This document shows positions 2,990 to 64,000 of a DNA stretch of 64,000 bases, in pieces. Numbering within the stretch: the stretch's first letter is position 1; every line of letters starts with the position of its first letter. Source of the DNA: Escherichia coli (GTDB taxonomy: Bacteria > Pseudomonadota > Gammaproteobacteria > Enterobacterales > Enterobacteriaceae); assembly GCF_965641715.1 (NCBI RefSeq), contig NZ_OZ282453.1; one strand, given 5' to 3'. The position numbers and the translations under genes were made by a program. The notes under the pieces are model-generated. The model was given only the letters and a program-made list of their open reading frames with translations. It searched no databases and was not told the origin of the DNA.

Positions 2990-4636
2990 ATGTCAAACAA
3001 ACCCTTTCATTATCAGGCTCCTTTCCCACTCAAAAAAGATGATACCGAGTACTACCTGCTGACCAGCGAACATGTCAGCGTATCTGAATTTGAAGGGCAG
3101 GAGATTTTGAAAGTCGCACCCGAAGCGTTAACTCTGTTGGCGCGTCAGGCGTTTCATGATGCGTCGTTTATGCTGCGTCCGGCTCACCAACAACAGGTGG
3201 CCGACATTCTGCGTGACCCGGAGGCCAGCGAAAATGATAAATATGTGGCGCTGCAATTCCTGCGTAACTCCGACATCGCGGCGAAAGGCGTTCTGCCAAC
3301 CTGTCAAGATACCGGCACCGCGATTATTGTTGGTAAAAAAGGGCAGCGTGTATGGACCGGTGGTGGTGATGAAGCGGCGCTGGCGCGCGGTGTCTATAAC
3401 ACTTATATCGAAGATAATCTGCGCTACTCGCAAAACGCGCCGCTGGATATGTATAAAGAAGTGAATACCGGCACCAATCTGCCAGCGCAGATCGATCTTT
3501 ATGCCGTTGATGGCGACGAATACAAATTCCTCTGTATCGCCAAAGGTGGTGGTTCGGCAAACAAGACGTATCTCTATCAGGAAACCAAAGCGTTACTAAC
3601 GCCCGGAAAACTGAAAAATTACCTGGTTGAGAAGATGCGCACGCTGGGTACGGCGGCCTGTCCTCCGTATCATATTGCGTTCGTTATTGGTGGAACATCT
3701 GCAGAAACGAACCTTAAAACGGTGAAACTGGCTTCCGCTAAATACTATGATGAACTGCCAACGGAAGGGAATGAGCACGGTCAGGCGTTCCGCGATGTGG
3801 AACTGGAAAAAGAATTGCTGATCGAAGCGCAAAATCTTGGTCTGGGTGCGCAGTTTGGTGGTAAATACTTCGCTCACGACATCCGCGTGATTCGCCTGCC
3901 ACGTCACGGCGCATCCTGCCCGGTCGGTATGGGCGTCTCCTGCTCTGCTGACCGTAATATCAAAGCGAAGATCAACCGTCAGGGGATCTGGATCGAAAAA
4001 CTGGAACATAATCCAGGCAAATATATCCCGGAAGAGCTGCGCAAAGCGGGAGAAGGCGAAGCGGTGCGCGTTGACCTTAACCGTCCGATGAAAGAGATCC
4101 TCGCACAGTTGTCGCAGTATCCCGTTTCTACACGCTTATCGCTTAACGGCACGATTATCGTTGGTCGTGATATTGCTCACGCCAAACTGAAAGAGCGGAT
4201 GGATAACGGTGAAGGGCTGCCGCAATACATTAAAGATCATCCGATTTACTACGCGGGTCCGGCCAAAACGCCGGAAGGTTATGCCTCCGGTTCTCTTGGC
4301 CCAACGACCGCCGGACGGATGGATTCTTATGTCGATCAACTGCAAGCGCAGGGCGGAAGTATGATCATGCTGGCGAAAGGCAACCGCAGCCAGCAGGTGA
4401 CGGATGCCTGTAAAAAACACGGCGGCTTCTACCTTGGCAGTATCGGTGGTCCGGCCGCTGTATTGGCGCAGGGAAGTATTAAGAGCCTGGAATGTGTTGA
4501 ATATCCGGAACTGGGAATGGAAGCCATCTGGAAAATTGAAGTGGAAGATTTCCCGGCGTTTATTCTTGTGGATGATAAAGGAAATGACTTCTTTCAGCAG
4601 ATACAACTCACACAATGCACCCGCTGTGTGAAATAA
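2990..4636 (+). CDS. fumA: class I (Fe-S) fumarate hydratase
   Basis: 548-aa [27 protein letters not shown]..., matches recalled FumA length and sequence. Confidence 0.95.
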
Positions 4637-4640
4637 ACAG

Positions 4641-4667
4641 AGCCGCCCTTCGGGGCGGTTTTTTTAC
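4641..4667 (+). terminator. Rho-independent terminator after fumA
   Basis: GC stem gccgccc/gggcggt around a ttcg loop followed by a T-run, immediately after the fumA stop. Confidence 0.6.
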
Positions 4668-4778
4668 ATGGCACGAAAGACCAAATATTTGTTATCAAAT
4701 GGTAAATAATGAGTGAGCTAAAAGTTGCTTAACGAAAGCAAAACAGAAAGAAAAAATTAATCAGGTGAGGAGCAGGCC

Positions 4779-7142
<2,364 letters not shown>

Positions 7143-7183
7143 TATAGCACAGTGGTGGTGACTTGACCACCGTGCGCGTAGTG

Positions 7184-8485
7184 TCAAGCAGAGGTAAATT
7201 GCGGGATGTTATGCCATAACGGCCAGCTAAACGAGAAGCGGGCACCACCCAGTTCGCTGGTGTCACAATTAACCGTACCGCCCATTGCCAGTGCTATAGA
7301 GTGGACAATTGCCAGCCCCAGCCCGCAGCCGCCGGTTGAGCGATCCCGGCTGGGATCGAGGCGAACAAAAGGTTCAAAGATATGTTCGCGGTTTTCTGGG
7401 GCAATCCCTGGGCCATCATCCTCAACAATTAATGTCGCTCTATTCCCCGACAGTAGCAGGCTGGTTTCAACCGTTGAATGACAGTAGCGCAGGGCGTTAT
7501 TGAGCAAATTATCCAGCACGCGCTCCATTAAGCGCATATCCAACGCCGCATAATGGCCTTGCATGAGCGTTTTTATCCGTACCGTTTTATCGGGCGTTAC
7601 TGCCTGAATATCTGCCAGATGCGTTGACAGCCACAACGGCAGGTCTGGTTCGCTAAGATGAAGCTCGTTTTGTGGGCGATCGAGTCGGGCATAAGTCAGC
7701 AGCTCTTCAATTAAAGCTTCAAGTTGACTGATATCACGATTCAACGCCTGGGATTCGGCGGCGCTCAGGTTATCGCTCATCTCCAGTCGATAACGCAGGC
7801 GTACTAACGGTGTTCGCAGTTCGTGAGCGATACCGTCAATAAGCTGTTTTTTGCTGGCAATCAAGGCGTTGATATTGTCCGCCATCTGGTTAAATGCGAT
7901 ACCAAGTCGTTCAAAGCTCGAACCCTCATCAAAGTGGATACGTTCATTGAGATGCCCATCGCCAAATCGTTGCGCCGCTGCTTCCAGTTTTAACATATCC
8001 TGCCAGTGCGGACGCATCCAGATAAACACCGGAAAGGCGAGGGAAATAGCAATAAAAGCGATCAGGGCGATATCCAGCAATCGCATCTGATGGAGGTAAT
8101 AAAGATAAGGAACAGGACCAACTGCCAGCACGTAGTGGCTGCGCGGGATACGCTGCAAAAACGTGTACTGATCGTCCAGGGCGACAATTTCGCCGCCACG
8201 CAGTCGGTGCATGGAAATATCATCAAGATGGTATTTACTCAGTGGCTCGACACGCAGATCGAAAGAGAGATTTAAATCCATCTCTTTTAGCGTCTTACCC
8301 CAGTCGTGTGGGGGGATCTCACGCAATTCGCTGCGCATCAGATACAGCGAACTGTTCATCAAATCATCCAGCGACTGTTTGCCCGCGCGTTCGGCGGTAA
8401 ATTTGTACACCAGCCCAACCAGCAGAGACATCACAAGGAAGCAGACAAACAATAACAGGTAAAACTGGATAAACAGTTTTTTCAT
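7184..8485 (-). CDS. rstB: two-component sensor histidine kinase RstB
   Basis: 433-aa ORF with N-terminal transmembrane segments, H-box (IAHELRTPL) and ATPase motifs; adjacent to rstA. Confidence 0.92.
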   Translation of the reverse strand: MKKLFIQFYLLLFVCFLVMSLLVGLVYKFTAERAGKQSLDDLMNSSLYLMRSELREIPPHDWGKTLKEMDLNLSFDLRVEPLSKYHLDDISMHRLRGGEIVALDDQYTFLQRIPRSHYVLAVGPVPYLYYLHQMRLLDIALIAFIAISLAFPVFIWMRPHWQDMLKLEAAAQRFGDGHLNERIHFDEGSSFERLGIAFNQMADNINALIASKKQLIDGIAHELRTPLVRLRYRLEMSDNLSAAESQALNRDISQLEALIEELLTYARLDRPQNELHLSEPDLPLWLSTHLADIQAVTPDKTVRIKTLMQGHYAALDMRLMERVLDNLLNNALRYCHSTVETSLLLSGNRATLIVEDDGPGIAPENREHIFEPFVRLDPSRDRSTGGCGLGLAIVHSIALAMGGTVNCDTSELGGARFSFSWPLWHNIPQFTSA

Positions 8486-8488
8486 CGC

Positions 8489-9208
8489 TTATTCCCATGC
8501 ATGAGGCGCAAAAAGATAGCCTTTGTTACGCACAGTTTTAATGCGATAAGGTTCTGCGGCGTTATCGAGCAGTTTTTTTCTTAACCGCGAAATAGCCACG
8601 TCCACGCTACGATCCAGTCCGTCATAACTGACGCCGCGTAAATTTTTCAGCAATGCATCGCGGTCCATGATTTGCCCGGCATGGGTAGCTAATTCCCACA
8701 ATAATTCGAAATCAGCTGTCGAGAGCGAGATTTCAGTGTTAGCCAGGGTGACTACGCGGTTGATAGGATCGATGGTCAACGTGCCGAAATGCAGGGCTTT
8801 GTAGGGAGTCAGAGACGTTTCCTGAAGACCTTTGGTCAGTGTGGCTTGCTCATTCTGACGCAAATGCAAACGTAAACGCGCTAGCAAAACAGCAGGGGGC
8901 GTCGTTTTGAGAATATAGTCGCAGGCACCCATTTCCAGTGCCAGGATGTGGTTCATATCGCTATCGAGAGAGGTTAGAAGAACAATCGGTCCAGACCACT
9001 TTGCGCGTAAATCACGACAAATGGTCATGCCGTCCTTGCCTGGTAGCATGATGTCGAGTAACACCAAATCCGGATTTTCTCGCAAAATGGTTTCTTCAGC
9101 CTGGTCGCCGCGCGGCTCTACGGTAACCTGCATATCATGTTTTGCCAGGTACGCGGCAATCAGTGAACCGACTTCCGCATCATCTTCCACAAATACGATA
9201 GTGTTCAT
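8489..9208 (-). CDS. rstA: two-component response regulator RstA (OmpR family)
   Basis: ORF 8489..9268 trimmed to MNTIVFVEDDAEVG... (239 aa); receiver domain plus winged-helix C-terminus. Confidence 0.9.
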   Translation of the reverse strand: MNTIVFVEDDAEVGSLIAAYLAKHDMQVTVEPRGDQAEETILRENPDLVLLDIMLPGKDGMTICRDLRAKWSGPIVLLTSLDSDMNHILALEMGACDYILKTTPPAVLLARLRLHLRQNEQATLTKGLQETSLTPYKALHFGTLTIDPINRVVTLANTEISLSTADFELLWELATHAGQIMDRDALLKNLRGVSYDGLDRSVDVAISRLRKKLLDNAAEPYRIKTVRNKGYLFAPHAWE

Positions 9209-9336
9209 AACATTCACGGTAGATATAAAAACGTCACAATACACCGCGCTGTTTTTACTTACTATCAATCGTTTCTAAACAAGTTTTCATCAGGTATTCT
9301 ACTGATGACTTGTTATGGAAGTGTTAAGGTAAAAAG

Positions 9337-9672
9337 ATGGGGCTGGTAATCAAAGCCGCGCTCGGTGCGCTGGTAGTGCTGTTGATTGGTGTTTTAGCAA
9401 AAACGAAAAATTATTATATCGCCGGGCTGATCCCACTTTTCCCGACCTTTGCGCTCATCGCGCATTATATTGTTGCCAGCGAACGCGGCATTGAAGCCTT
9501 ACGCGCAACCATCATTTTTAGTATGTGGTCGATTATTCCCTATTTTGTTTACCTGGTGTCGCTGTGGTATTTCACCGGAATGATGCGCTTGCCCGCCGCT
9601 TTTGTTGGTTCTGTTGCGTGTTGGGGGATAAGCGCATGGGTGTTGATTATATGCTGGATAAAGCTGCATTAA
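9337..9672 (+). CDS. ydgC: GlpM-family inner membrane protein YdgC
   Basis: 111-aa hydrophobic ORF at the K-12 ydgC position between rstA and folM. Confidence 0.85.
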   Translation: MGLVIKAALGALVVLLIGVLAKTKNYYIAGLIPLFPTFALIAHYIVASERGIEALRATIIFSMWSIIPYFVYLVSLWYFTGMMRLPAAFVGSVACWGISAWVLIICWIKLH

Positions 9673-10391
9673 CGCAGATGACGACCGCCATCAAGTGGGA
9701 AACTGCGTCCGGTGACAAAGCAACTGGTAAGTAAGTAATCGACCAGGTCGATCACTTCTTTCTCGCCAGGCGCGGTTTTCATCAGTGATTTATTCAGCGC
9801 CTGTTGTCGATATTCGGCATCATCATGTTCATTAAACAGGATCAGCGATGGCGCAATAGAATTCACTTTCACTTCCGGTGCCAGCTTGCGGGCAAACGAG
9901 CGGGTCATATTATCCAGTGCCGCTTTGCTTGCAGCATACGCAATATGTTTGTCGCTACCGCGCTCCACCACATAATCGGTAAAGTGAATGATATCGCTGG
10001 CGGCGTGTCCGTGCCCACGCAGTAATCTTTCCAGCGCATGGTTGAGCAGGTATGGGGTATTAACGTGGATCTGCATCATGCAAGCCAGTACGTCGGCCAG
10101 TGGCGCACCCGGTTTTTCCGCCATCCACGCACTGGCGTTATGCAAAATAGCACGCAGACCATGGGTGCTTTTTAGTACTTCATCGGCAAACGCCATCACA
10201 CCGTCGTTGGTCGAAAAATCAGCCTGAATACACTGCGCACCTGCATTAATCAGTCCATCAATGGCTGGATAGTGTGTCCGATAGCTGACAATCACCGGTT
10301 GCTTTTGATTAATGAAATGCCATGCGAGGGCGAGGCCGATGCGACGACCTCCGCCAGTAATTAATATTGGCAAGGGCTGGGTTTTACCCAT
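9669..10391 (-). CDS. folM: dihydromonapterin reductase / dihydrofolate reductase FolM (SDR family)
   Basis: 240-aa ORF with SDR Rossmann motif ITGGGRRIGLA and catalytic YAASKAAL. Confidence 0.9.
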   Translation of the reverse strand: MGKTQPLPILITGGGRRIGLALAWHFINQKQPVIVSYRTHYPAIDGLINAGAQCIQADFSTNDGVMAFADEVLKSTHGLRAILHNASAWMAEKPGAPLADVLACMMQIHVNTPYLLNHALERLLRGHGHAASDIIHFTDYVVERGSDKHIAYAASKAALDNMTRSFARKLAPEVKVNSIAPSLILFNEHDDAEYRQQALNKSLMKTAPGEKEVIDLVDYLLTSCFVTGRSFPLDGGRHLR

Positions 10392-10427
10392 CGTTATCTC
10401 CTTTGCTATCCAACGATGGGATGAACG

Positions 10428-11810
10428 TTATCCCACCAGCATCCAGGTCGCCGGAACTGAGGCAATTAACAGCATGCCAATCAGCACCATTTCCTGACGG
10501 TTCAGTACATTATCATGTGTATGCGTTTTGCGCGCATACAGGAAAACCAGCAGCCCCGGTGCATACAGAACAACGGATAACAGCAAGTGCATTGGACCAG
10601 AGGCGTACAATAACCATAAGCCATAAATGCAGGCACCGACACCTACCGCTTTATGCAGTGGACGGGTTGCGATTTTCAGCAAGAACGCGCCGACCAGGAA
10701 ATAGGGCACCAGAATCATTTCTGAGGCGATGGTCAGCAACGTGTTGTAATCGGAACCGGTCAGCCAGATGAGTACCAGACAAATTTGCACGCAGATGTTG
10801 GTCAGCCACAGTGAAGCGGATGGCGCAGCTTGGGCGTTCTGGCGCGCAAAAATGCGCGGGAATGCTTTATGAGTGGCGGCCAGGAACGGAACTTCTGCCG
10901 CCATGATGGTCCAGCTTAAGTACGCGCCGCAAACGGAAACGATCAAACCGGCAGCGATGATGATTTCGCCCCACGGTCCCATCATTTCCACCATCAGTCC
11001 GGCCATTGACGGGTTACGAATTTCAGCCAGTTCAGGACGTGCCACCACGCCCAGCGAAAGCAGCGTTACCAGCAAATAAACGCCCAGAGCGGAGAGAACC
11101 GCCAGCAGTGTCGCTTTGCCAACATCACGTTTATTACGCGCACGCGCAGAAACAACCACGGCACCTTCCACACCAATGAAAACCCACAGGGTGATCAGCA
11201 TGGTGTTTTTCACCTGTTCCCACACGGGTACGCCAAGTGCAAGTCCGGTGAAGTCGAGCTTGAAGGTATCCAGTTTGAACATCATCATCGCCAGCACAAC
11301 AAACAGACCCAGCGGCAACAATTTTGCCAGTGTCGCCACCAGGTTAATGCTGGCAGCGGTTTGCACTCCGCGCAGGATCAAAAAGTGAACAATCCACAAT
11401 AAAGCCGATGCACCGACGATCGATTGCCAGGTATTACCATCGCCAAACAGGCGCAATTCCGGCGTGTCCGTAAAAAAGCTTAACGCGGAAAAAACGATCA
11501 CCAGATAGGAGACGTTGGCGATGACTGCACACAGCCAGTATCCCCATGCGGAACAAAAGCCGATTAGCTCGCCAAACCCTTCGCGGGCATAGGTAAAGAT
11601 ACCGCCGTCAAGTTCGGGACGAATGCGCGTGAGGATCAGCATGGCAAAGGCCAGCAATAAAATGCCAGCGCCAGTAATACCCCAGCCGATGAGCAGTGCT
11701 GCCGGGCTGGCAACTGCCGCCATATTTTGCGGCAGACTGAAAACACCCGCGCCCAGCATTGAGCTTAATACCAGCGCGGTGAGTGCGCTCAGTCCCAGTT
11801 TCTTTTCCAT
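10428..11810 (-). CDS. ydgI: APC-family amino-acid antiporter (arginine/ornithine antiporter-like) YdgI
   Basis: 460-aa polytopic membrane ORF at the K-12 ydgI position. Confidence 0.87.
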   Translation of the reverse strand: MEKKLGLSALTALVLSSMLGAGVFSLPQNMAAVASPAALLIGWGITGAGILLLAFAMLILTRIRPELDGGIFTYAREGFGELIGFCSAWGYWLCAVIANVSYLVIVFSALSFFTDTPELRLFGDGNTWQSIVGASALLWIVHFLILRGVQTAASINLVATLAKLLPLGLFVVLAMMMFKLDTFKLDFTGLALGVPVWEQVKNTMLITLWVFIGVEGAVVVSARARNKRDVGKATLLAVLSALGVYLLVTLLSLGVVARPELAEIRNPSMAGLMVEMMGPWGEIIIAAGLIVSVCGAYLSWTIMAAEVPFLAATHKAFPRIFARQNAQAAPSASLWLTNICVQICLVLIWLTGSDYNTLLTIASEMILVPYFLVGAFLLKIATRPLHKAVGVGACIYGLWLLYASGPMHLLLSVVLYAPGLLVFLYARKTHTHDNVLNRQEMVLIGMLLIASVPATWMLVG

Positions 11811-38528: not shown

Positions 38529-38657
38529 ATGACAATAGAAAAACACGAAAGAAGCACTAAGGATTTGGTGAAAGCAGCAGTATCGGGATGGCTGGGCACT
38601 GCGCTTGAATTTATGGATTTCAAGAGTCATACGTGTCAACTATTTGATAAATATTAA
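38529..38657 (+). pseudogene. ydfJ: 5' remnant of MFS (MHS-family) transporter gene ydfJ, truncated by prophage insertion
   Basis: ATG with RBS followed by MTIEKHERSTKDLVKAAVSGWLGTALEFMDF..., a typical MHS-transporter N-terminus (E-x-x-DF box), then a stop within about 40 codons just before the integrase 3' end. K-12 ydfJ is known to be split by Qin. Confidence 0.6.
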
Positions 38658-38658
38658 A

Positions 38659-39954
38659 TTAATTTTTCATTGCTTCGTTATGGGGCATGGTTGGGGCAAA
38701 CTCGCTTAACTGTGTATTTAACAAAGCTACCTGTGCATTATTGTTTTCAGACATCCATTTTCCGTATACCTGAAATACCATTTGCGCATCTGCATGGCCC
38801 ATCTGGTTTGCTATAAATGCCGGGTTAGCACCAGCTGTCAGCGACCAGCAGGCATAAGTATGTCTCGACTGATATGATTTTCGATGGCGGAGTCCGGCAC
38901 GTTTTATCGCTGCGTCCCACATCTGCCTTATTGAGTCAACGGTAAAATGGTCACCATAATTTTTTACTCTCGCTGACACTTCAGGTTGAAAAACAAAGGT
39001 GCATTTTTGTTTTTCTGTTCTGCCATACTCTCTCAGGTGAACATCAATGATATGCTCTTTGCTCAGTCTCGTTAATGTCATCTGACTCCGGAGAGCGTCG
39101 ATTGCTGGCTTAATAAGATGAATGACCCGATTGGTTCCCGCCTGTGTTTTTGGTACCGTGAAACGGTCTTTTGCTAAATTTCTCCTGATCATCATTGTTC
39201 CATTTTTCAGATCTATGTCCTCCCATCCAAGTGCACACAGCTCACCAGGGCGAATGCCAGTATAAACAGAAACACACCATAAATTTTTTGCTTGCTGATT
39301 TCTGCACGCATCGATAAGACGGATAAATTCCTCCCGCGAAAGAGGATCCGGAATGGTTCTTGATTCCTTTAATGGCGAGATCCCCTTAAACGGATTATCT
39401 GCCAGGTAACCGTTATCAACACCAAACTGGAACACGGCGTTAAGATTTGTCATGTAATTATTTACAGTTACAGCCGATCTCCCTGGTTGTGTAACAATAT
39501 AGTTACTTTTGGGGATCTGGTATCCAGTCAGTAGCTCTTTACGAACCTCCAGTAATTTTTCTTTATTAATCGATGAGGCAAGATTTTTTTCACCGATTAT
39601 GCTCAGGATATTTTTGATGACGGCACGGTATGTGTTGAGTGATGTTTTGGCGACTTCAGTTTCTTTCAGTGCCAGAAATTTTTCAGCCAGTTCTTTTATG
39701 GTTAAATCTTGTCGGGCCTCACCAAATTTTTCCAGATTGCGTGAGGAGGGAAACTGTTTTGCATAGTCGAAAACACCAGTTTTTATTGCGTAACAAACAG
39801 AGGCGCGTAGTTCACCTGCAACGCGCCTGTTTTTTGCTGTGTCAGGAACCCCCAGATTTTCCCTGACTCTTACGCCTTTATAAACAAACCAGATACGTAA
39901 TTTCCCTCCATGGTTTTCCACGCCTGTCGGATATTTCATTTCAACTTCTCTCAT
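38659..39954 (-). CDS. intQ: prophage tyrosine integrase (P4-type), apparently intact
   Basis: 431-aa ORF with C-terminal tyrosine-recombinase catalytic region (R...HxxR...Y, e.g. SRHTYACWS and YGKW); first gene inside the prophage. Start may be Met6 (39939). Confidence 0.9.
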   Translation of the reverse strand: MREVEMKYPTGVENHGGKLRIWFVYKGVRVRENLGVPDTAKNRRVAGELRASVCYAIKTGVFDYAKQFPSSRNLEKFGEARQDLTIKELAEKFLALKETEVAKTSLNTYRAVIKNILSIIGEKNLASSINKEKLLEVRKELLTGYQIPKSNYIVTQPGRSAVTVNNYMTNLNAVFQFGVDNGYLADNPFKGISPLKESRTIPDPLSREEFIRLIDACRNQQAKNLWCVSVYTGIRPGELCALGWEDIDLKNGTMMIRRNLAKDRFTVPKTQAGTNRVIHLIKPAIDALRSQMTLTRLSKEHIIDVHLREYGRTEKQKCTFVFQPEVSARVKNYGDHFTVDSIRQMWDAAIKRAGLRHRKSYQSRHTYACWSLTAGANPAFIANQMGHADAQMVFQVYGKWMSENNNAQVALLNTQLSEFAPTMPHNEAMKN

Positions 39955-44632: not shown

Positions 44633-45040
44633 TTATTGATGCTTGTTGCGTTTGCGAGCCTCTAATAGCTCGGTGAACAGGCGATTAAAATTCTCAACGC
44701 GGGCGCGGAGTTCGCTGAGTTGTGCTTGTTGCTCTGATTTAGGAAGTGCGCGATACAAACGCAGCATCTCTAACTCATCTTCCGATAAGTCTAAGGCACT
44801 ATCGAGTGAAACAGGGGGAGCTGGTGTTTTGTCCTCGTCGCCAAACAGTATCCAGGTTGGTGAACATTGCAATACCTCGGCGAGGCGATGCAAATTTTGC
44901 CCGCGCGGGGCTGTATGGTCACTTTCCCATAATGAAATTGATGAGCCAGATACGCCAGCAGCTTTGCTTAAACCGTTTTGACTTAAGCCTACCTGCTTAC
45001 GTCTTTCTCTAATGCGTTGACCTAAAGTTTTCTCGTTCAT
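44633..45040 (-). CDS. dicA: prophage repressor, DicA-like (XRE-family HTH)
   Basis: ORF trimmed to MNEKTLGQRIRERRK... (135 aa); HTH QNGLSKAAGVSGSSISLWE; C-terminal half ...LQCSPTWILFGDEDK... matches recalled DicA closely. Confidence 0.85.
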   Translation of the reverse strand: MNEKTLGQRIRERRKQVGLSQNGLSKAAGVSGSSISLWESDHTAPRGQNLHRLAEVLQCSPTWILFGDEDKTPAPPVSLDSALDLSEDELEMLRLYRALPKSEQQAQLSELRARVENFNRLFTELLEARKRNKHQ

Positions 45041-45117
45041 ATTTAGATATCTTAATAACCCTTGACTTGAGATTCCTTGAGTGATTAGCATTGAGAAAAC
45101 TCAATATTGGAGGTGCG
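45041..45117. promoter_or_regulatory. divergent immunity promoter/operator region between dicA-like and dicC-like genes
   Basis: 77-bp intergenic region with perfect palindrome attgag-aaaa-ctcaat (about 45090..45105) and repeated cttgag elements, SD ggagg for the rightward gene. Confidence 0.5.
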
Positions 45118-45345: not shown

Positions 45346-45850
45346 ACAGGCTCGTGAGGCTCTGGATGCCTGGATATGTCGACCAGGAATGACACAGGAG
45401 CAGGCGACGATATTAATCACTGAAGCATTCTGGGCTTTGAAAGAGCGCCCGAACATCGATGTTCAGCGTGTCACAGATGAAGGTGGCGCGGTTGATCAGC
45501 GAGCGCTTGGCGTTAATCGAGTGAAGATATTCGAACGCTGGAAGGCTATCGACACTAGGGATAAGCGTGAAAAGTTCACGGCGCTAGTGCCTGCAATTAT
45601 GGAGGCTATCCGGATTAATGATTTCAGGTTGTATCGTGAAATTAGTGACGGAAAAAGCATCACGTACATGATCGCCGGGTTAAACAAAGAATATGGCGAT
45701 GTGGTGGAGTCCGGACTGCTTTTTGCTGATCCTGCCGTAGTGGATCGTGAAACTGACGAACTTATAGAAAAAGCAATTGCTTTCAAACTTGCGTATCGAC
45801 AGCAATACCAACAAAAAGCTGGATGGAATTATGAGCCTTCTTTTTGCTGA
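45329..45850 (+). CDS. YdaT-like prophage early protein
   Basis: 173-aa ORF directly after the cro-like gene, the position YdaT occupies in Rac-type prophages; weak recalled similarity only. Confidence 0.55.
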   Translation: MKITPEQAREALDAWICRPGMTQEQATILITEAFWALKERPNIDVQRVTDEGGAVDQRALGVNRVKIFERWKAIDTRDKREKFTALVPAIMEAIRINDFRLYREISDGKSITYMIAGLNKEYGDVVESGLLFADPAVVDRETDELIEKAIAFKLAYRQQYQQKAGWNYEPSFC

Positions 45851-46796
45851 ACGCCCACTGGTTATAAACACACAGCTTGCGATGAAGATTGGCTTAAATG
45901 AAGCCATTGTGTTGCAGCAGTTGCATTACTGGTTGAGAGATACCAATTCCGGCATGGAATGTGATGGTGTTCGCTGGATTTACAACACAACGGAACAATG
46001 GCTGGAACAGTTCCCATTCTGGTCAGAGTCAACGTTAAAGCGCGCGTTTGCAAGTCTGAAAACGCTGGGGCTTTTGCGTTGTGAAAAGCTCAATAAATCA
46101 AAGCGCGATATGACCAATTTCTACACGATCAACTACGGGAGCGAGCTTTTAGATGGTGGCAAATTGAGCGAATCCATCGGTTTAAAATGCGCCGCTCCAT
46201 CAGGTCAAAATGACACGATGGAAGAGGTCAAAATGAAACGCTCCATTGGTTCAAAACGACCCAATGTCATCGGGTCAAAATGGCCTGATGATCTTACAGA
46301 GAATACAACAGAGATTACTACAGAGAATAAAAACACTTTTCGTCCGGAAGCTTCGCAACCGGACCCGCAGACCGCTGAACAGGATTTTTTAACCCGGAAC
46401 CCCGACGCGGTTGTGTTTAGTGCGAAAAAACGCCAGTGGGGTAGCAGGGAGGATTTGGCGTGTGCGCAGTGGATTTGGGGGCGGATCGTGAACCTTTACG
46501 AACAGGCTGCCAGCGACGATGGAGAGATCATGCGACCAAAAGAGCCTAACTGGACAGCCTGGGCCAATGACGTGCGCACAATGCGGATGCTGGATGGCAG
46601 AAGCCACAGACAAATTTGCGAAATGTTTGGTCGGGTACAGCGAGATCAATTCTGGGTAAAAAACATCATGAGCCCGTCAAAACTCCGCGAAAAATGGGAC
46701 GAACTGGTCATCCGCCTGGGACGTTCACCTGTACAGCGTTGTATGAATCATATTTCTGAACCGGATACAGAAATTCCGCCTGGTTTCAGAGGATAA
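45831..46796 (+). CDS. phage replication initiation protein (O-like / DNA-binding replication protein)
   Basis: ORF 45777..46796 trimmed to ATG at 45831 (MSLLFAERPLVINTQLAMKIGLNEAIVLQQLHYWL...), overlapping the upstream stop; N-terminal HTH-like segment; position after cro/ydaT. Confidence 0.6.
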   Translation: MSLLFAERPLVINTQLAMKIGLNEAIVLQQLHYWLRDTNSGMECDGVRWIYNTTEQWLEQFPFWSESTLKRAFASLKTLGLLRCEKLNKSKRDMTNFYTINYGSELLDGGKLSESIGLKCAAPSGQNDTMEEVKMKRSIGSKRPNVIGSKWPDDLTENTTEITTENKNTFRPEASQPDPQTAEQDFLTRNPDAVVFSAKKRQWGSREDLACAQWIWGRIVNLYEQAASDDGEIMRPKEPNWTAWANDVRTMRMLDGRSHRQICEMFGRVQRDQFWVKNIMSPSKLREKWDELVIRLGRSPVQRCMNHISEPDTEIPPGFRG

Positions 46797-46836
46797 GTTT
46801 TGATTTCAGGTCATGAGGTAATTTTAAGGGGGACTT

Positions 46837-47238
46837 GTGGCAAAAGTTTTTACACAAGAAGAGCGGGAAAAAATTAAAGGGCAGGTGGTGGAACTCGTGC
46901 GCCAGAGCGGTCGTGAGACGTTACGGCAACTGGAAGCTAAAACAGGTGCGACTAGATATCTGATGAGCGTTCTTGCCAGAGAGCTGGTAGCCAGTGGCGA
47001 TGTATACAACTCCGGCTACGGGTTATTCCCGTCTGAACAGGCGCGTAAGGACTGGCAAAACGCCCGCAAAAAACTATCGAGGGCAAAGGTGAAGAAAACA
47101 GCTGTGGTTGATCCGGACCTTATCTGGTCGTTACCTGATGGAGAAATACGTCGCTACGACAGTCGCCTAAACATAATCTGTCGCGAGTGCCGGATGAGTG
47201 AAGTTATGCAGCGCATACTGGCATTTTATCAGGGATAA
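46837..47238 (+). CDS. hypothetical protein, possible winged-helix DNA-binding protein
   Basis: 133-aa ORF with GTG start preceded by strong SD (taaggggg); segment TLRQLEAKTGATRYLMSVLARELVASGDVY resembles a wHTH. Confidence 0.5.
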   Translation: MAKVFTQEEREKIKGQVVELVRQSGRETLRQLEAKTGATRYLMSVLARELVASGDVYNSGYGLFPSEQARKDWQNARKKLSRAKVKKTAVVDPDLIWSLPDGEIRRYDSRLNIICRECRMSEVMQRILAFYQG

Positions 47239-59091: not shown

Positions 59092-59439
59092 TCACCATAA
59101 CTGCTAACCATTCTGACCATTTCACAAGTGACAGAGTCAATATCGTATTCTGTCACTGTAAGGCTAATACAGTACTGCAATTCAACTACAGCAATGCCTC
59201 GTATTTAGGTGAATTTACAATATCGTCCAGTTCGGATGCCGGCTGCATTTCTGAAGATAAGGCATTTCGGTTCGCGTATTTTCCCCTCATGCTCGTCAGT
59301 CCTGCGCGTAGTAAGAAACAGGACACTCACACTAATTTGTGTGGGCATGCTGTGATGTCCTTCTGAATTATCCCCATGCCATTATGTAACGCTCTGTTTC
59401 AGATGCTCGTCACGGTTGTCAGGCTGTCGGGTCCTCCCA

Positions 59440-59520
59440 GTGGGGGTCCCTGCCACGGGGCGGGAGCGTCGCGGAAAAAGGCTAGTTTTTGAAATTTTAT
59501 TCGTCATCACCACTACTTTA
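59440..59520. other. candidate cos site (cosN plus terminase-binding region), lambda-like
   Basis: ccACGGGGCGGGAGCGTCGCGG...TTTTTGAAATTTTATTCGTCATCAC parallels recalled lambda cosN/cosB (ACGGGGCGGCGACCTCGCGG...TTTATGAAAATTTTCCGG...TTCGTCATAAC), about 170 bp upstream of the small terminase gene. Confidence 0.55.
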
Positions 59521-59643
59521 ATTGATTGATATTACAGTGGTTTTATTTTTATGGTGTCGATTCTGATTGTTTTTTGTTCATCACTAACACCGTTTGCCTA
59601 AAGTTGTTCGCAAGATGCATGTTTAAAACATTCTGGAGCGGGT

Positions 59644-60138
59644 ATGGATCGAGAGTTAAAAAATCTGACGCTGAATATCAGTCAACTGGCGGCATTGTCA
59701 GGTGTACATCGCCAGACTGCTGCGGCAAGGCTGCAAAATCTACCCGTTGCAGGGGGGCATGAAAGCAACCTCAAGCTTTATCGGGTGGTTGATATTGTGT
59801 CGGCATTTCTGGCATTACCACCGCCGGTTGCAGAAGGCGAAATGGACGCGCATGAGCGCAAAGCCTGGTATCAGTCTGAACGTGAGCGTCTTAAGTTCGA
59901 ACAGGAAACGGCACAACTCATTCCGGCCAGTGATGTCAGACGGGAATTTGCCATCTGGGCAAAAGCGGTCGTGCAGGTGCTGGAGACATTACCGGATATT
60001 CTTGAACGTGACTGCGGTCTGCAGCCTGCCGCTGTGAGCCGTGTTCAGTCCATTATTGATGATCTGCGCGATCAGATAGCCCTGCGGGTGACTGAAGCAG
60101 GTGCGGATGATGAGGAGGAATTACAGCAGGAGGAGTAA
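59644..60138 (+). CDS. terminase small subunit (Nu1/NohA-like)
   Basis: 164-aa ORF with N-terminal HTH-like segment, immediately upstream of and overlapping the large terminase start. Confidence 0.8.
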   Translation: MDRELKNLTLNISQLAALSGVHRQTAAARLQNLPVAGGHESNLKLYRVVDIVSAFLALPPPVAEGEMDAHERKAWYQSERERLKFEQETAQLIPASDVRREFAIWAKAVVQVLETLPDILERDCGLQPAAVSRVQSIIDDLRDQIALRVTEAGADDEEELQQEE

Positions 60139-62240
60139 TGCTGAATCAGGAAACCGCAAAGGCAGCACGAACCGATTCAGGTTATATCCTTCGCGCACCG
60201 AGACGAATGCGGGTTGCTGATGCCGTTGCTCAGTATATGCGGGTGCCTATGGGGGCAGGGAACTCAGTCCCGTGGGATCCGCTGGTGGCACCGTATGTTA
60301 TTGAGCCTATGAACTGCCTGGCCTCGCGTGAATACGACGCAGTGATATTTGTTGGCCCGGCACGAACCGGCAAGACTATCGGCCTGATTGACGGCTGGGT
60401 GATTTACAACGTGATTTGCGATCCTGCTGATATGCTGATCATTCAGATGACGGAGGAAAAAGCCCGCGAACACTCCAAAAAACGACTCGCCAGAACGTTT
60501 CGCGTCAGCCCGGAAGTGGTCAGTCGCCTGAGTCCGAACAAAAATGACAACAACGTTTATGACAGAACATTCCTTGCTGGCAACTACCTGAAAATCGGCT
60601 GGCCGTCAGTCAATATCATGTCTTCATCAGATTATAAATGCGTGGCGCTGACGGATTATGACCGTTTTCCGGAAGATATTGATGGTGAGGGGGATGCCTT
60701 CTCTCTTGCCTCAAAACGTACCACCACATTTATGTCCAGTGGTATGACGCTGGTGGAGAGTTCCCCCGGCAGGGATGTGAAGGATGTGAAATGGCGACGG
60801 ACTTCACCGCATGAGGCTCCACCAACCACGGGGATCCTGTCGCTCTATAACCGTGGCGATCGCCGTCGCTGGTACTGGCCCTGTCCACACTGTGGTGAGT
60901 ATTTTCAGCCCTGCGGCGATGTGGTTGCTGGTTTCCGTGATATTGCCGATCCTGTGCTGGCAAGTGAGGCGGCTTATATTCAGTGTCCTTGCTGTTCAGG
61001 ACGGATTTTGCCTGAACAAAAACGCGAGCTGAACGGACGTGGGGTCTGGTTACGGGATGGTGAATCCATCAATGCAGATGGCAGTCGTTATGGTGATCCC
61101 CGGCGTTCACGTATTGCGTCATTCTGGATGGAGGGTCCGGCAGCTGCTTATCAGACACTCTCGCAACTCGTTTACAAACTGCTTACTGCAGAACAGGAAT
61201 ACGAGACAACCGGAAGTGAAGAGACACTCAAGACGGTTATCAATACCGACTGGGGATTACCTTATCTTCCCCGCGCCAGCATGGAGCAACGAAAAAGTGA
61301 ATTGCTTGAGCAGCGGGCAGAGCCAGTTCCTTCCCGCAGTGTGCCGGATGGCGTTAATTTCCTTGTGGCGACAGTGGATGTGCAGGCGGGACGTCATCGC
61401 CGTTTTGTGGTTCAGGTAACGGGCTATGGCAGCCGTGGCGAACGCTGGATTATTGATCGTTACAACATCACGCAGTCATTGCGCGGTGACAGCGACGGGG
61501 AGAGCCAGCGAATTGATCCGGCCAGCTATCCGGAAGACTGGGATGTCCTGCTGACGGATGTTTTTCATAAAAGCTGGCCGCTGGCCTCCGATCCTTCTCA
61601 ACAAATGCGACTGATGGCAATGGCGGTGGACTCCGGCGGTGAAGACGGGGTCACTGATAATGCCTATAAATTCTGGCGTCGTTGCCGTCGTGATGGCCTT
61701 GGTAAACGTATTTACCTGTTTAAGGGTGACAGCATCCGGCGCGCAAAACTGATCAGCCGTACATTCCCTGATAACACCGGACGAACGGGCCGCCGGGCGC
61801 AGGCCGCAGGTGATGTGCCGCTCTGGCTTCTTCAGACGGATGCCCTGAAAGACCGGGTGAATAACGCGTTATGGCGTGACTCGCCAGGTCCCGGCTATGT
61901 GCATTTCCCTGACTGGCTGGGGAGCTGGTTTTACGACGAACTGACGTATGAAGAGCGGAGCAGTGACGGGAAATGGAGTAAGCCGGGTCGCGGTGCCAAC
62001 GAAGCTTTTGACCTGATGGTGTATGCCGAGGCTCTGGTCATTCTGCATGGATACGAAAAGATCCGCTGGCCGGATGCACCGGAGTGGGCGAGCCGGGAAA
62101 CCTGGCTGGAGTGTGTCCCGGACAGTACCGAACCGTCACCCACACCGGAACCGGTATCCACGCCTGTTAAAAAACAAAAACGGAAGAAAACAGTAACTGA
62201 CGATGTTAACCCCTGGCTGACTTCCGGAGGATGGTTATGA
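60138..62240 (+). CDS. terminase large subunit (lambda gpA family)
   Basis: 700-aa ORF with Walker A-like VGPARTGKT and C-terminal nuclease/ATPase region; start overlaps the small-subunit stop. Confidence 0.9.
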   Translation: MLNQETAKAARTDSGYILRAPRRMRVADAVAQYMRVPMGAGNSVPWDPLVAPYVIEPMNCLASREYDAVIFVGPARTGKTIGLIDGWVIYNVICDPADMLIIQMTEEKAREHSKKRLARTFRVSPEVVSRLSPNKNDNNVYDRTFLAGNYLKIGWPSVNIMSSSDYKCVALTDYDRFPEDIDGEGDAFSLASKRTTTFMSSGMTLVESSPGRDVKDVKWRRTSPHEAPPTTGILSLYNRGDRRRWYWPCPHCGEYFQPCGDVVAGFRDIADPVLASEAAYIQCPCCSGRILPEQKRELNGRGVWLRDGESINADGSRYGDPRRSRIASFWMEGPAAAYQTLSQLVYKLLTAEQEYETTGSEETLKTVINTDWGLPYLPRASMEQRKSELLEQRAEPVPSRSVPDGVNFLVATVDVQAGRHRRFVVQVTGYGSRGERWIIDRYNITQSLRGDSDGESQRIDPASYPEDWDVLLTDVFHKSWPLASDPSQQMRLMAMAVDSGGEDGVTDNAYKFWRRCRRDGLGKRIYLFKGDSIRRAKLISRTFPDNTGRTGRRAQAAGDVPLWLLQTDALKDRVNNALWRDSPGPGYVHFPDWLGSWFYDELTYEERSSDGKWSKPGRGANEAFDLMVYAEALVILHGYEKIRWPDAPEWASRETWLECVPDSTEPSPTPEPVSTPVKKQKRKKTVTDDVNPWLTSGGWL

Positions 62241-62449
62241 ACCAGAATGATATCGAAGCCATGATTCAGCGTTATACGGAAGCTGAAATGGCGGTGCTGG
62301 ACGGAAAATCCGTCACCTTTAATGGTCAGCAGATGACCATGGAAAACTTATCTGAGATCCGGCAGGGACGGCAGGAGTGGGAGCGCCGCCTTGCGGCTCT
62401 GATTACACGACGACGGGGGCATCCCGGGTACCGGCTGGCGAGGTTCTGA
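62237..62449 (+). CDS. head-tail joining / head completion protein (gpW-like)
   Basis: About 70-aa ORF between terminase and portal, ending ...RRRGHPGYRLARF like lambda gpW; start at second ATG after SD ggagg. Confidence 0.7.
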   Translation: MNQNDIEAMIQRYTEAEMAVLDGKSVTFNGQQMTMENLSEIRQGRQEWERRLAALITRRRGHPGYRLARF

Positions 62450-63957
62450 TGGCAATTCTTGATGATGTGATTGGCGTTTTTTCACCAGGATGGAAAGCGG
62501 CAAGGCTGCGTTCCCGTGCGGTGATCCAGGCTTATGAGGCCGTAAAAACGACACGGACACACAAAGCCCGGCGGGAAAACCGAACTGCCGACCAGTTAAG
62601 CCAGTACGGGGCCGTGTCGTTACGTGAGCAGGCCCGTTACCTTGATAACAACCACGATCTGGTTATTGGTGTATTTGACAAGCTGGAAGAACGGGTGGTG
62701 GGGAAAAACGGGATTATTGTCGAGCCACATCCGGTATTACGCAATGGGGCCATTGCCCGTGATCTGGCAGCGGAGATACGCACCCGATGGAGTGAATGGT
62801 CTGTCAGTCCGGAAGTCACCGGGCAGTTTACCCGTCCGATGCTGGAACGTCTGATGCTGCGTACCTGGCTGCGCGATGGTGAGGTGTTTGCCCAGATGGT
62901 TTCCGGGCGCATAAACAGCCTGACGCCTTCTGCCGGTGTTCATTTCTGGCTGGAGGCGCTCGAGCCGGACTTTATTCCCATGACCAGTGATGAGAGCAAC
63001 AGGCTGAATCAGGGCGTGTTTGTTGATGACTGGGGGCGTCCCGAAAAATATCTGGTGTATAAAAGCCGTCCCGTATCCGGGCGGCAGATGGAAACCAAAG
63101 AAGTGGATGCAGAGCGAATGCTGCATCTTAAATTTGTTCGCCGTCTGCACCAGATGCGCGGGACGTCTTTGTTGTCCGGTGTGCTGATCCGCCTCAGTGC
63201 CCTGAAAGAGTATGAAGATTCTGAGCTGACTGCAGCAAGGATCGCCGCTGCTCTGGGGATGTACATCCGGAAAGGCGACGGGCAGAGCTATGAACCGGAT
63301 GGTAATGGCAGCAAGGAGAATGAACGCGAGCTTACCATTCAGCCAGGCATTATTTACGACGATCTGAAACCCGGCGAAGAAATCGGAATGGTGAAGTCGG
63401 ATCGTCCCAATCCTAACCTTGAAACTTTTCGTAATGGTCAGTTGCGTGCCGTGGCGGCGGGCAGTCGTCTGAGTTTTTCCAGTACGGCACGCAACTATAA
63501 CGGCACTTACAGCGCCCAGCGTCAGGAGCTGGTTGAATCCACTGATGGCTACCTGATCCTGCAGGACTGGTTTATTGGTGCCGTCACCCGCCCGATGTAT
63601 CGTGCCTGGCTGAAACAGGCTGTGGCATCCGGTGTTATCAGGCTACCTCGCGATCTTGACCGTTCTTCACTGTATACCGCGGTGTATTCCGGACCGGTGA
63701 TGCCGTGGATTGACCCTGTTAAGGAGGCTGAGGCCTGGAAAATTCAGATTCGTGGTGGAGCGGCGACAGAATCAGACTGGGTACGTGCAGGTGGTCGTAA
63801 TCCGGATGATGTCAAACGTCGGCGCAAGGCCGAAATTGATGAAAACCGCAAGCTGGATCTGGTATTTGATACCGATCCGGCCAGTGATAAAGGAGGCAGC
63901 AGTGCCGCAACGAAACGACAGGAGCCGCAGCACACCGACGACCAGTCCGAAGAATAA
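62449..63957 (+). CDS. portal protein (lambda gpB family)
   Basis: Six-frame ORF 62377..63957 trimmed to MAILDDVIGVF... (about 502 aa), start overlapping the gpW-like stop; acidic C-terminal tail. Confidence 0.88.
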   Translation: MAILDDVIGVFSPGWKAARLRSRAVIQAYEAVKTTRTHKARRENRTADQLSQYGAVSLREQARYLDNNHDLVIGVFDKLEERVVGKNGIIVEPHPVLRNGAIARDLAAEIRTRWSEWSVSPEVTGQFTRPMLERLMLRTWLRDGEVFAQMVSGRINSLTPSAGVHFWLEALEPDFIPMTSDESNRLNQGVFVDDWGRPEKYLVYKSRPVSGRQMETKEVDAERMLHLKFVRRLHQMRGTSLLSGVLIRLSALKEYEDSELTAARIAAALGMYIRKGDGQSYEPDGNGSKENERELTIQPGIIYDDLKPGEEIGMVKSDRPNPNLETFRNGQLRAVAAGSRLSFSSTARNYNGTYSAQRQELVESTDGYLILQDWFIGAVTRPMYRAWLKQAVASGVIRLPRDLDRSSLYTAVYSGPVMPWIDPVKEAEAWKIQIRGGAATESDWVRAGGRNPDDVKRRRKAEIDENRKLDLVFDTDPASDKGGSSAATKRQEPQHTDDQSEE

Positions 63958-64000
63958 TTCCTGGTTCAGGATGCAGGCAGGTCACCAGAGTGACGCGGAT

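Follow-up and report, generated by a model that had tools for sequence, protein, structure and literature searches.

A lambda-type cos site of the mEp460 family in an Escherichia coli prophage at the Qin locus

A lambda-type cos site lies just upstream of the terminase genes of a prophage in the window, which here means the whole 64-kb stretch of E. coli DNA that was analysed. Judged by its sequence the site is real but already known, being the ordinary cos of an mEp460-family packaging module. The initial annotation had proposed such a site for positions 59440-59520, and this is borne out by a cosQ heptamer, a lambda-like cosN, an A/T tract, repeats, an IHF consensus and the TerS-TerL gene pair that follows (Table 1). 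Very probably it belongs to a lambdoid prophage of full length that occupies the Qin locus and carries a packaging module of the mEp460/phi458/Ayreon type.

Table 1. Elements of the cos region and the packaging genes downstream of it; bp numbers count from the predicted left end
Feature	Position	Strand	Evidence
cosQ heptamer GGGTCCT, packaging-termination element	59429..59435	+	identical to the lambda heptamer
cosN, ACG/GGGCGGGAGCGT/CGCGG	59455..59474	+	left half and flanks identical to lambda
AT-rich A5/T5 tract AAAAAGGCTAGTTTTTGAAATTTTAT, bp 18-42, counterpart of lambda I2	59475..59499	+	read from sequence
Candidate R3 (putative TerS-binding repeat) TTCGTCATCACCACT, bp 43-57	59500..59514	+	direct-repeat partner of 59574-59584
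IHF consensus TATCAATCAATTA, counterpart of I1	59519..59531	-	perfect WATCAANNNNTTR match, between the R3 and R2 candidates
Candidate R2, conserved block ATGGTGTCGAT, possibly an inverted R element	59551..59561	-	conserved position
Conserved block GGTGTCGAT inside the R2 candidate	59553-59561		alignment
Candidate R1 TTGTTCATCACTAAC	59574..59588	+	direct repeat of R3
TerS, 164 aa, DUF1441 family	59644..60138	+	Pfam DUF1441 E = 2.7e-41; PHROG 141 terminase small subunit E = 7e-74
TerL, 700 aa, gpA family	60138..62240	+	Pfam GpA_ATPase E = 4.8e-71, GpA_nuclease E = 1.1e-85
Head-tail adaptor, gpW-like, 70 aa	62237..62449	+	PHROG 118 head-tail adaptor E = 8.5e-37
Portal protein, 502 aa, lambda family, complete in the window	62449..63957	+	Pfam Phage_portal_2 E = 6.4e-82

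Elements of the cos site and the comparison with lambda

The GC-rich patch reads ACGGGGCGGGAGCGTCGCGG at 59455-59474 and contains the putative 12-nt end GGGCGGGAGCGT at 59458-59469. By analogy with lambda, the top strand would be nicked after 59457 and the bottom strand after 59469, leaving these 12 nt as a 5' overhang. In an ungapped alignment the joined ends of lambda (NC_001416) read GGGTCCT-N23-ACG/GGGCGGCGACCT/CGCGG and the window reads GGGTCCT-N22-ACG/GGGCGGGAGCGT/CGCGG, and the distance from the start of cosQ to the predicted nick is 29 nt in the window versus 30 nt in lambda. The two 12-mers differ at bp 7, 8, 9 and 11 and nowhere else, the left half GGGCGG and the nick-flanking CG/CG being those of lambda. 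The lambda end given in the initial annotation is the correct one and the end in the window is indeed different; the alignment with the lambda cos that had been suggested as a check returned matches at cosQ, the cosN left half and the CG flanks. Window and lambda have in common cosQ, the frame ACG/GGGCGG......T/CGCGG, an AT-rich tract after cosN and candidate R-type repeats around an IHF consensus. They differ in the symmetry of cosN, where 10 of 16 bp are symmetric in lambda and 8 of 16 in the window.

Lambda-like phages are defined by 12-nt 5' ends similar to those of lambda (Feiss et al., PMC4669245). Across this group cosQ and the CG dinucleotides flanking the nicks are conserved and bp 7-12 commonly vary, in N15 at bp 9 and 12 and in Gifsy-1 at bp 8, 9 and 11 (PMC4669245). 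The window follows the same pattern: all variation in cosN is confined to bp 7-12 and leaves its left half and CG flanks unchanged, a 7-bp cosQ lies about 30 bp 5' of the top-strand nick, and TerS and a gpA-family TerL are encoded directly downstream (59644, 60138). The composite motif GGGTCCT-N15-30-CGGGGCGG has a single match in the 64-kb window. A search of published full texts for the exact 12-mer gave matches only in two unrelated eukaryotic papers. In the 32 nt 5' of cosN in IMG/VR (at least 122 occurrences), GGGTCCT stands at the same position in nearly all common variants, and one upstream variant with at least 3 occurrences has GGCTCCT instead. The cosQ heptamer and the IHF consensus had both been overlooked in the initial annotation.

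The A/T tract directly after cosN is kept across phages with a DUF1441-family TerS in the alignment described below; lambda I2 lies at about bp 18-50 (PMC4856287). The candidate R3 is placed close to the R3 sites of lambda (bp 50-65) and N15 (bp 48-60; PMC9026076). Repeats beside cosN had been noted before, which holds in part: TTCGTCATCAC is present as a single exact copy at 59500-59510, and its second copy, TTGTTCATCAC at 59574-59584, is imperfect and lies beyond 59440-59520. In a repeat search the R3 and R1 candidates come out as a 24-nt direct repeat with 71% identity, 74 nt apart. Lambda has the string TTCGTCATAAC at bp 67-77, just right of R3 and outside R3 at bp 50-65 (PMC9026076), and a similar string stands at bp 43-53 of the window; the lambda string is probably what prompted the comparison of the repeats with lambda in the initial annotation.

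The IHF consensus between the R3 and R2 candidates is a perfect match, to be read against 10 observed and 3.3 expected consensus matches in the 64-kb window; it is also retained in phi458, CP-1639 and Chris1. Another perfect IHF consensus is found at 38637-38649 (minus strand), just beyond the 3' end of the integrase gene and near the junction of prophage and chromosome, and is plausibly an att-arm IHF site. Across 45 distinct close relatives in IMG/VR (type A), cosQ GGGTCCT (100% conserved), cosN, the R3 core TCGTCATCACCAC, TTGAT of the IHF consensus and GTGTCGAT are invariant. The spacers vary, among them the NNNN spacer of the IHF consensus.

The assignment of 59551-59561 as R2 is tentative, its match to R3/R1 being weak; the block is 100% conserved in the type-A relatives. 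A GTGTCGA(A/T) block is kept there in the window, phi458, PhiR47_1, CP-1639, Chris1 and Gifsy-2, and VT1-Sakai and Fels-1 have at the R2 position GATGATGAT, the inverse of their own R3. Together these eight phages with a DUF1441-family TerS make up the alignment, and they share one order of elements. A cosQ-like GGT(C/A)CTCC is followed by cosN, then by AAAAAGGC..TTTTTG..TTTTAT and by a CATCA(C/T)CA block at the R3 position, which is kept even in the more distant phages. TAA-N4-TTGAT (IHF) comes next, then GTGTCGA(A/T) or GATGATGAT, and finally TTTTTTGTTC(A/G)(T/A)CA at the R1 position, where TTGTTC(A/G)(T/A)CA(C/T) is found in 8 of the 8 aligned phages.

An R3-I1-R2-R1 plan has been described for lambda, 21, phi80 and Gifsy-1 (PMC9026076). 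On the alignment, the order in the DUF1441 phages appears to match this plan but with different R sequences. In the window itself the R3 and R1 positions are occupied by direct repeats with a perfect IHF consensus between them, and the match at R2 is weak. Its candidate R elements are of the TCATCAC type and 74 nt apart, whereas those of lambda are of the CGTTTCC type with about 100 nt from R3 to R1 in the lambda left end. Between 59470 and 59643 a CGTTTCC(G/T)TTCT-like element is absent. To our knowledge the R sites of DUF1441-type TerS proteins have not been mapped experimentally. This type of TerS is widespread and occurs in Gifsy-2, VT1-Sakai, mEp460 and cdtI.

Packaging genes and relatives of the module

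The claim that terminase, gpW and portal are intact is confirmed, as the open reading frames of TerS, TerL, the W-like adaptor and the portal are all complete, the last ending at 63957. The TerS start codon follows the predicted nick by 186 nt (190 nt in lambda). TerS is 99-100% identical to the TerS proteins of mEp460, Ayreon, phi458, mEp460_ev081, mEp460_4F5 and vB_EcoS-569R4. By BLASTP no similarity to lambda Nu1 was detected, and the Phage_Nu1 Pfam model, which lambda Nu1 and the Gifsy-1 TerS match at about 1e-100, gave no match in the window TerS at a cut-off as loose as E <= 10. A sequence search of the PDB with TerS gave nothing relevant. In the AlphaFold (AF2) model (mean pLDDT 74.7) an N-terminal strand-helix-helix-loop-strand-helix arrangement is followed by long helices. 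Foldseek returned weak matches to this model, all with E >= 0.2, the best being chain 6hn7_B of 6hn7, the Rpp/TerS 'Hijacking the Hijackers' entry of the PDB, followed by winged HTHs of the MerR type. The model is compatible with an N-terminal winged HTH and with a Nu1-like DNA-binding domain but proves neither.

TerL aligns with lambda gpA along almost its whole length at 25% identity, and its open reading frame has the same length as that of the phi458 TerL. The Walker A motif GPARTGKT aligns with that of gpA, as do the acidic motifs (VDVQ with IDSQ, VDSGG with WDTGG, NEAFD with NEALD), all of which presumably correspond to the catalytic residues of lambda. The adaptor gene is annotated as Ad1/W in related phages, and the portal gene is as long as the portal genes of phi458 and of the prophage in CP148581.

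By analogy with lambda, the module may work as follows. Dimers of TerS, with its putative N-terminal HTH, would bind the TCATCAC-type R repeats of cosB, while IHF would bend the DNA at the consensus between R3 and R2. Anchored in this way, the gpA-family TerL would nick cosN at positions 12 bp apart and produce the 12-nt 5' overhang GGGCGGGAGCGT. The terminase complex would remain on the end bearing cosB and dock on the portal, and DNA would then be translocated rightward until the next cosQ (GGGTCCT) and cosN terminate packaging. The sequence anatomy, synteny, conservation and identity to viable phages are shown directly, whereas the nick positions, the binding of TerS to the R elements and the binding of IHF are steps that we infer.

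The site and its genes are found nearly unchanged in known phages. The GenBank records of phages cdtI (AB285204) and Tritos (OV696610) start at exactly GGGCGGGAGCGT, as GGGCGGGAGCGTCGCGGAAAAAGGCTAGTTTTT, and the Tritos record ends in ...CCTGCCACG, its cosN being identical to that of the window. Tritos makes virions and is a plaque isolate (PMC9928086). From the predicted left end into the portal gene and on to the window end (59458-64000), DNA identity is 98.6-99% over 4.4-4.5 kb to mEp460, mEp460_4F5, mEp460_ev081, Ayreon, phi458 and vB_EcoS-569R4, the matches of phi458 and 569R4 spanning exactly 4543 bp. The window thus has the near-identical cos, TerS, TerL, adaptor and portal of an mEp460-type packaging module. 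Spontaneous induction and plaque formation are described for the siphovirus phi458 (PMC9701743). Its cosN is identical to that of the window, and the cores of its R3 and IHF elements, its R2 block and its R1 do not differ either. Across the phages of this group a few point differences from the window lie in the spacers, at 59498, 59514-59516, 59523-59524 and 59563. The phage phi458 differs in its early region, immunity and integration site, with lambda-like O/P, CI/CII and Gam, whereas the prophage in the window has a Qin/Rac-like early region.

The module is also common in E. coli. Of 5426 complete E. coli genomes, 1463, about a quarter, contain the 221-bp cos region at a coverage of at least 80%, and 1057 records reach an identity of at least 95%. 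The exact cosN 25-mer was found in at least 120 IMG/VR contigs. Among the matches listed, none had the nick at the first base of the stored stretch. Many of the contig identifiers resemble those of isolate genomes, and therefore these matches are probably prophage fragments; the scan bears on prevalence and cassette diversity, not on physical ends.

More distant relatives show which parts of the site vary. Gifsy-2, Fels-1, VT1-Sakai, CP-1639, mEp213, LLS and Chris1 have DUF1441 TerS proteins with 40-65% identity to that of the window. The phages of this kind keep the same order of cos elements with a CATCATCA-like R3, the IHF consensus and a TTGTTC(A/G) R1, but differ from the window in the right half of cosN and in the R sequences. 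For LLS a 12-nt cohesive end, GGGCGGCGCGCT, is given in the record, and the Salmonella and Citrobacter members have GGTACTC at cosQ instead of GGTCCTC. For Cr-LKS3 a 9-nt overhang has been reported (PMC9303873). The TerS of this phage is 40% identical to the window TerS over 79% of the query, and the length of the overhang can differ in this lineage, which counts against the 12-nt prediction.

Gifsy-1 of Salmonella, which is counted among the lambda-like phages with 12-nt ends (Feiss, PMC4669245), has the end GGGCGGCAGCGT, in direct reading one base away from that of the window, at position 7. The near-identical end suggested a packaging module of the Gifsy-1 type. However, this was ruled out by the Nu1-family TerS and the lambda/21-type head module of Gifsy-1, whose cosB is unrelated to that of the window.

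The cosB-TerS cassette and packaging specificity

Comparison with cdtI and Tritos points to a cassette that is exchanged behind a constant cosN. Counted from the left end, window and cdtI agree in every one of the first 33 bp (100%), and the right end of Tritos, with its cosQ, shares 91% identity with the window. Similarity to these two phages (91-100%) extends over cosQ, cosN and the A/T tract, ends sharply at 59491 (bp 34) and restarts at codon 34 of TerL (60237), and from there through the portal gene the identity is 91-92%. In between, cdtI and Tritos carry a different cassette consisting of cosB, TerS (41.7% identity) and the first 33 codons of TerL. From this break in similarity between 59491 and 60237 it follows that the exchanged unit is cosB, TerS and the TerL N-terminus. 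In IMG/VR the exact cosN 25-mer is joined to three types of cosB, with about 54 occurrences of the mEp460 type, about 36 of the cdtI type and about 18 of the PhiR47 type among the matches listed.

Judging from lambda/21 hybrids, cosB, TerS and the TerL N-terminus together are the expected unit of specificity; in lambda the Nu1-binding domain is at the gpA N-terminus. It is a tentative reading, and one we hold at somewhat below even, that one cosQ-cosN of the GGGCGGGAGCGT type serves at least three such cassettes (mEp460, cdtI/Tritos and PhiR47) with mutually exclusive specificities in E. coli prophages. If the cassettes do exclude each other, they would show the smallest unit that determines specificity in the DUF1441 TerS family, as yet uncharacterised, and co-resident prophages could terminate packaging at each other's cos but initiate only at their own.

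The initial annotation had suggested that the prophage may package DNA with its own cos specificity, which it tied to the altered 12-nt end. The specificity does probably differ from that of lambda, as read from the DUF1441 TerS and the TCATCAC-type R elements, but through cosB and TerS and not through the 12-mer, and it would be common to the mEp460 group and not peculiar to this prophage. Compared with the group of lambda, 21 and Gifsy-1, the window TerS is of the DUF1441 family and not of the Phage_Nu1 family, and the repeats are of the TCATCAC type and not the lambda-like R1-R3. That the altered end itself gives a private packaging specificity is very unlikely, even though 4 of its 12 positions are unlike lambda. 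All four changes fall within bp 7-12, the naturally variable right half, where changes had no measurable effect on cos cleavage, and the terminases of lambda and N15 show no cosN specificity (PMC4669245). Packaging specificity has instead been located in cosB/TerS (PMC4669245; PMC9026076). In addition, three different cosB/TerS types occur behind one and the same cosN. The variation of the 12-mer stays within the known natural pattern, and the Gifsy-1 end, one base off, goes with a Nu1-type TerS; as a determinant of specificity the 12-mer is not plausible.

One IMG/VR contig (IMGVR_UViG_2541047735_000008, 10.5 kb) carries two copies of the window cosN, 3.3 kb apart, within 3388-10526. There a D5-like primase-helicase and an SSB are followed by a cos with cdtI-type cosB, an open reading frame for a ClpP-protease/capsid fusion, a lambda gpI-like open reading frame and the second cos, which has a TCATCATCATC-type R3 and is followed by TerS and TerL. 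Between the first cos and the ClpP-protease/capsid fusion no terminase open reading frame of at least 70 aa was found. The arrangement could be a satellite beside a prophage, a rearranged prophage or a misassembly.

The prophage at the Qin locus

The prophage lies at the Qin locus of the E. coli chromosome, adjoining rspB, with an intact integrase gene at 38659-39954. A Qin/Rac-like early region is followed by Q, the lysis genes, cspI and gnsB and then by cos. Strain Z1322HEC0002 (CP148581) has a 99.7% identical prophage of about 45.7 kb, which continues beyond the portal with a protease/capsid fusion, tail genes, J, lom, a tail fibre gene and pinQ up to ydfJ; for comparison, the genome of mEp460 has 44.5 kb and that of cdtI 47.0 kb. 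The contrast that had been drawn with K-12 Qin holds: at the same locus in K-12 the integrase is a pseudogene, nohA and stfQ are fused and the whole segment from TerL to J is gone, whereas here the genes from TerS to the portal are intact.

Two phage-borne tRNA genes are located 3' of the Q antiterminator gene, at 53134-53209 and 53310-53386. ARAGORN assigns them as tRNA-Met (CAT) and tRNA-Arg (TCT), but RefSeq calls the CAT one tRNA-Ile in CP148581, and it is presumably a lysidine-modified tRNA-Ile2. An open reading frame of 449 aa (47673-49022, minus strand) between the replication genes and hokD matches PHROG 8571 only and adjoins an HTH pseudogene fragment in CP148581; possibly its product is that of a moron or serves in defence.

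Several other explanations of the site were considered. A chance GC-rich patch without function is extremely improbable: the individual motifs are short, but the composite cosQ-cosN motif was found in 0 of 100 dinucleotide-preserving shuffles, and phages and the 1463 E. coli genomes alike keep its position and synteny. Just as remote is the cos of a PICI or other satellite that borrows the terminase of a helper. The cosQ and cosN of PICIs are nearly identical to those of their lambda-like helper phages (PMC9026076). A satellite cos, however, is expected beside an rpp-type gene and lacks terminase and structural genes of its own, whereas here TerS, TerL, adaptor and portal follow, with no rpp gene there. 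The site also stands in late-gene synteny after the lysis genes, and the near-identical relative is a prophage of about 45 kb. Headful (pac) packaging was ruled out by the gpA-family TerL and the conserved cosQ and cosN.

It is a substantial possibility, if less than an even one, that cos and the packaging genes are intact in an unproductive prophage, locked in, non-inducible or defective elsewhere, with the cos as a silent relic. The window stops at the portal and the head and tail genes of this strain lie beyond 64000. The repressor is a short DicA-like HTH protein (152-aa ORF at 44633-45091, minus strand; 135 aa as annotated in the relative) whose PHROG matches are transcriptional regulators and repressors; judging from these matches and its length, it probably has no room for a LexA-like cleavage domain. 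In the replication region (45831-47238) an O-like initiator is directly followed by a DUF977/Ren-like gene, with no P/DnaC-like loader recognised there, and in CP148581 a fragmentary HTH pseudogene follows. K-12 Qin, at the same locus, is defective. However, integrase, excisionase, Q, holin, lysozyme, an Rz-like protein, TerS, TerL, adaptor and portal are all encoded in full length in the window, and the 99.7% identical prophage of CP148581 has a complete set of head and tail genes and, with about 45.7 kb, a packageable size. The short DicA-like repressor and the lack of a recognisable P/DnaC-type loader bear on inducibility by mitomycin C.

Beyond annotation the cos finding matters little, the module being very common and already known. 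It does mark this prophage, unlike the Qin remnant of K-12, as one whose cos and terminase module is complete and of the same type as in viable phages. This helps to assess whether release of phage, or mobilisation of satellites that bear a cos, may be expected from the strain.
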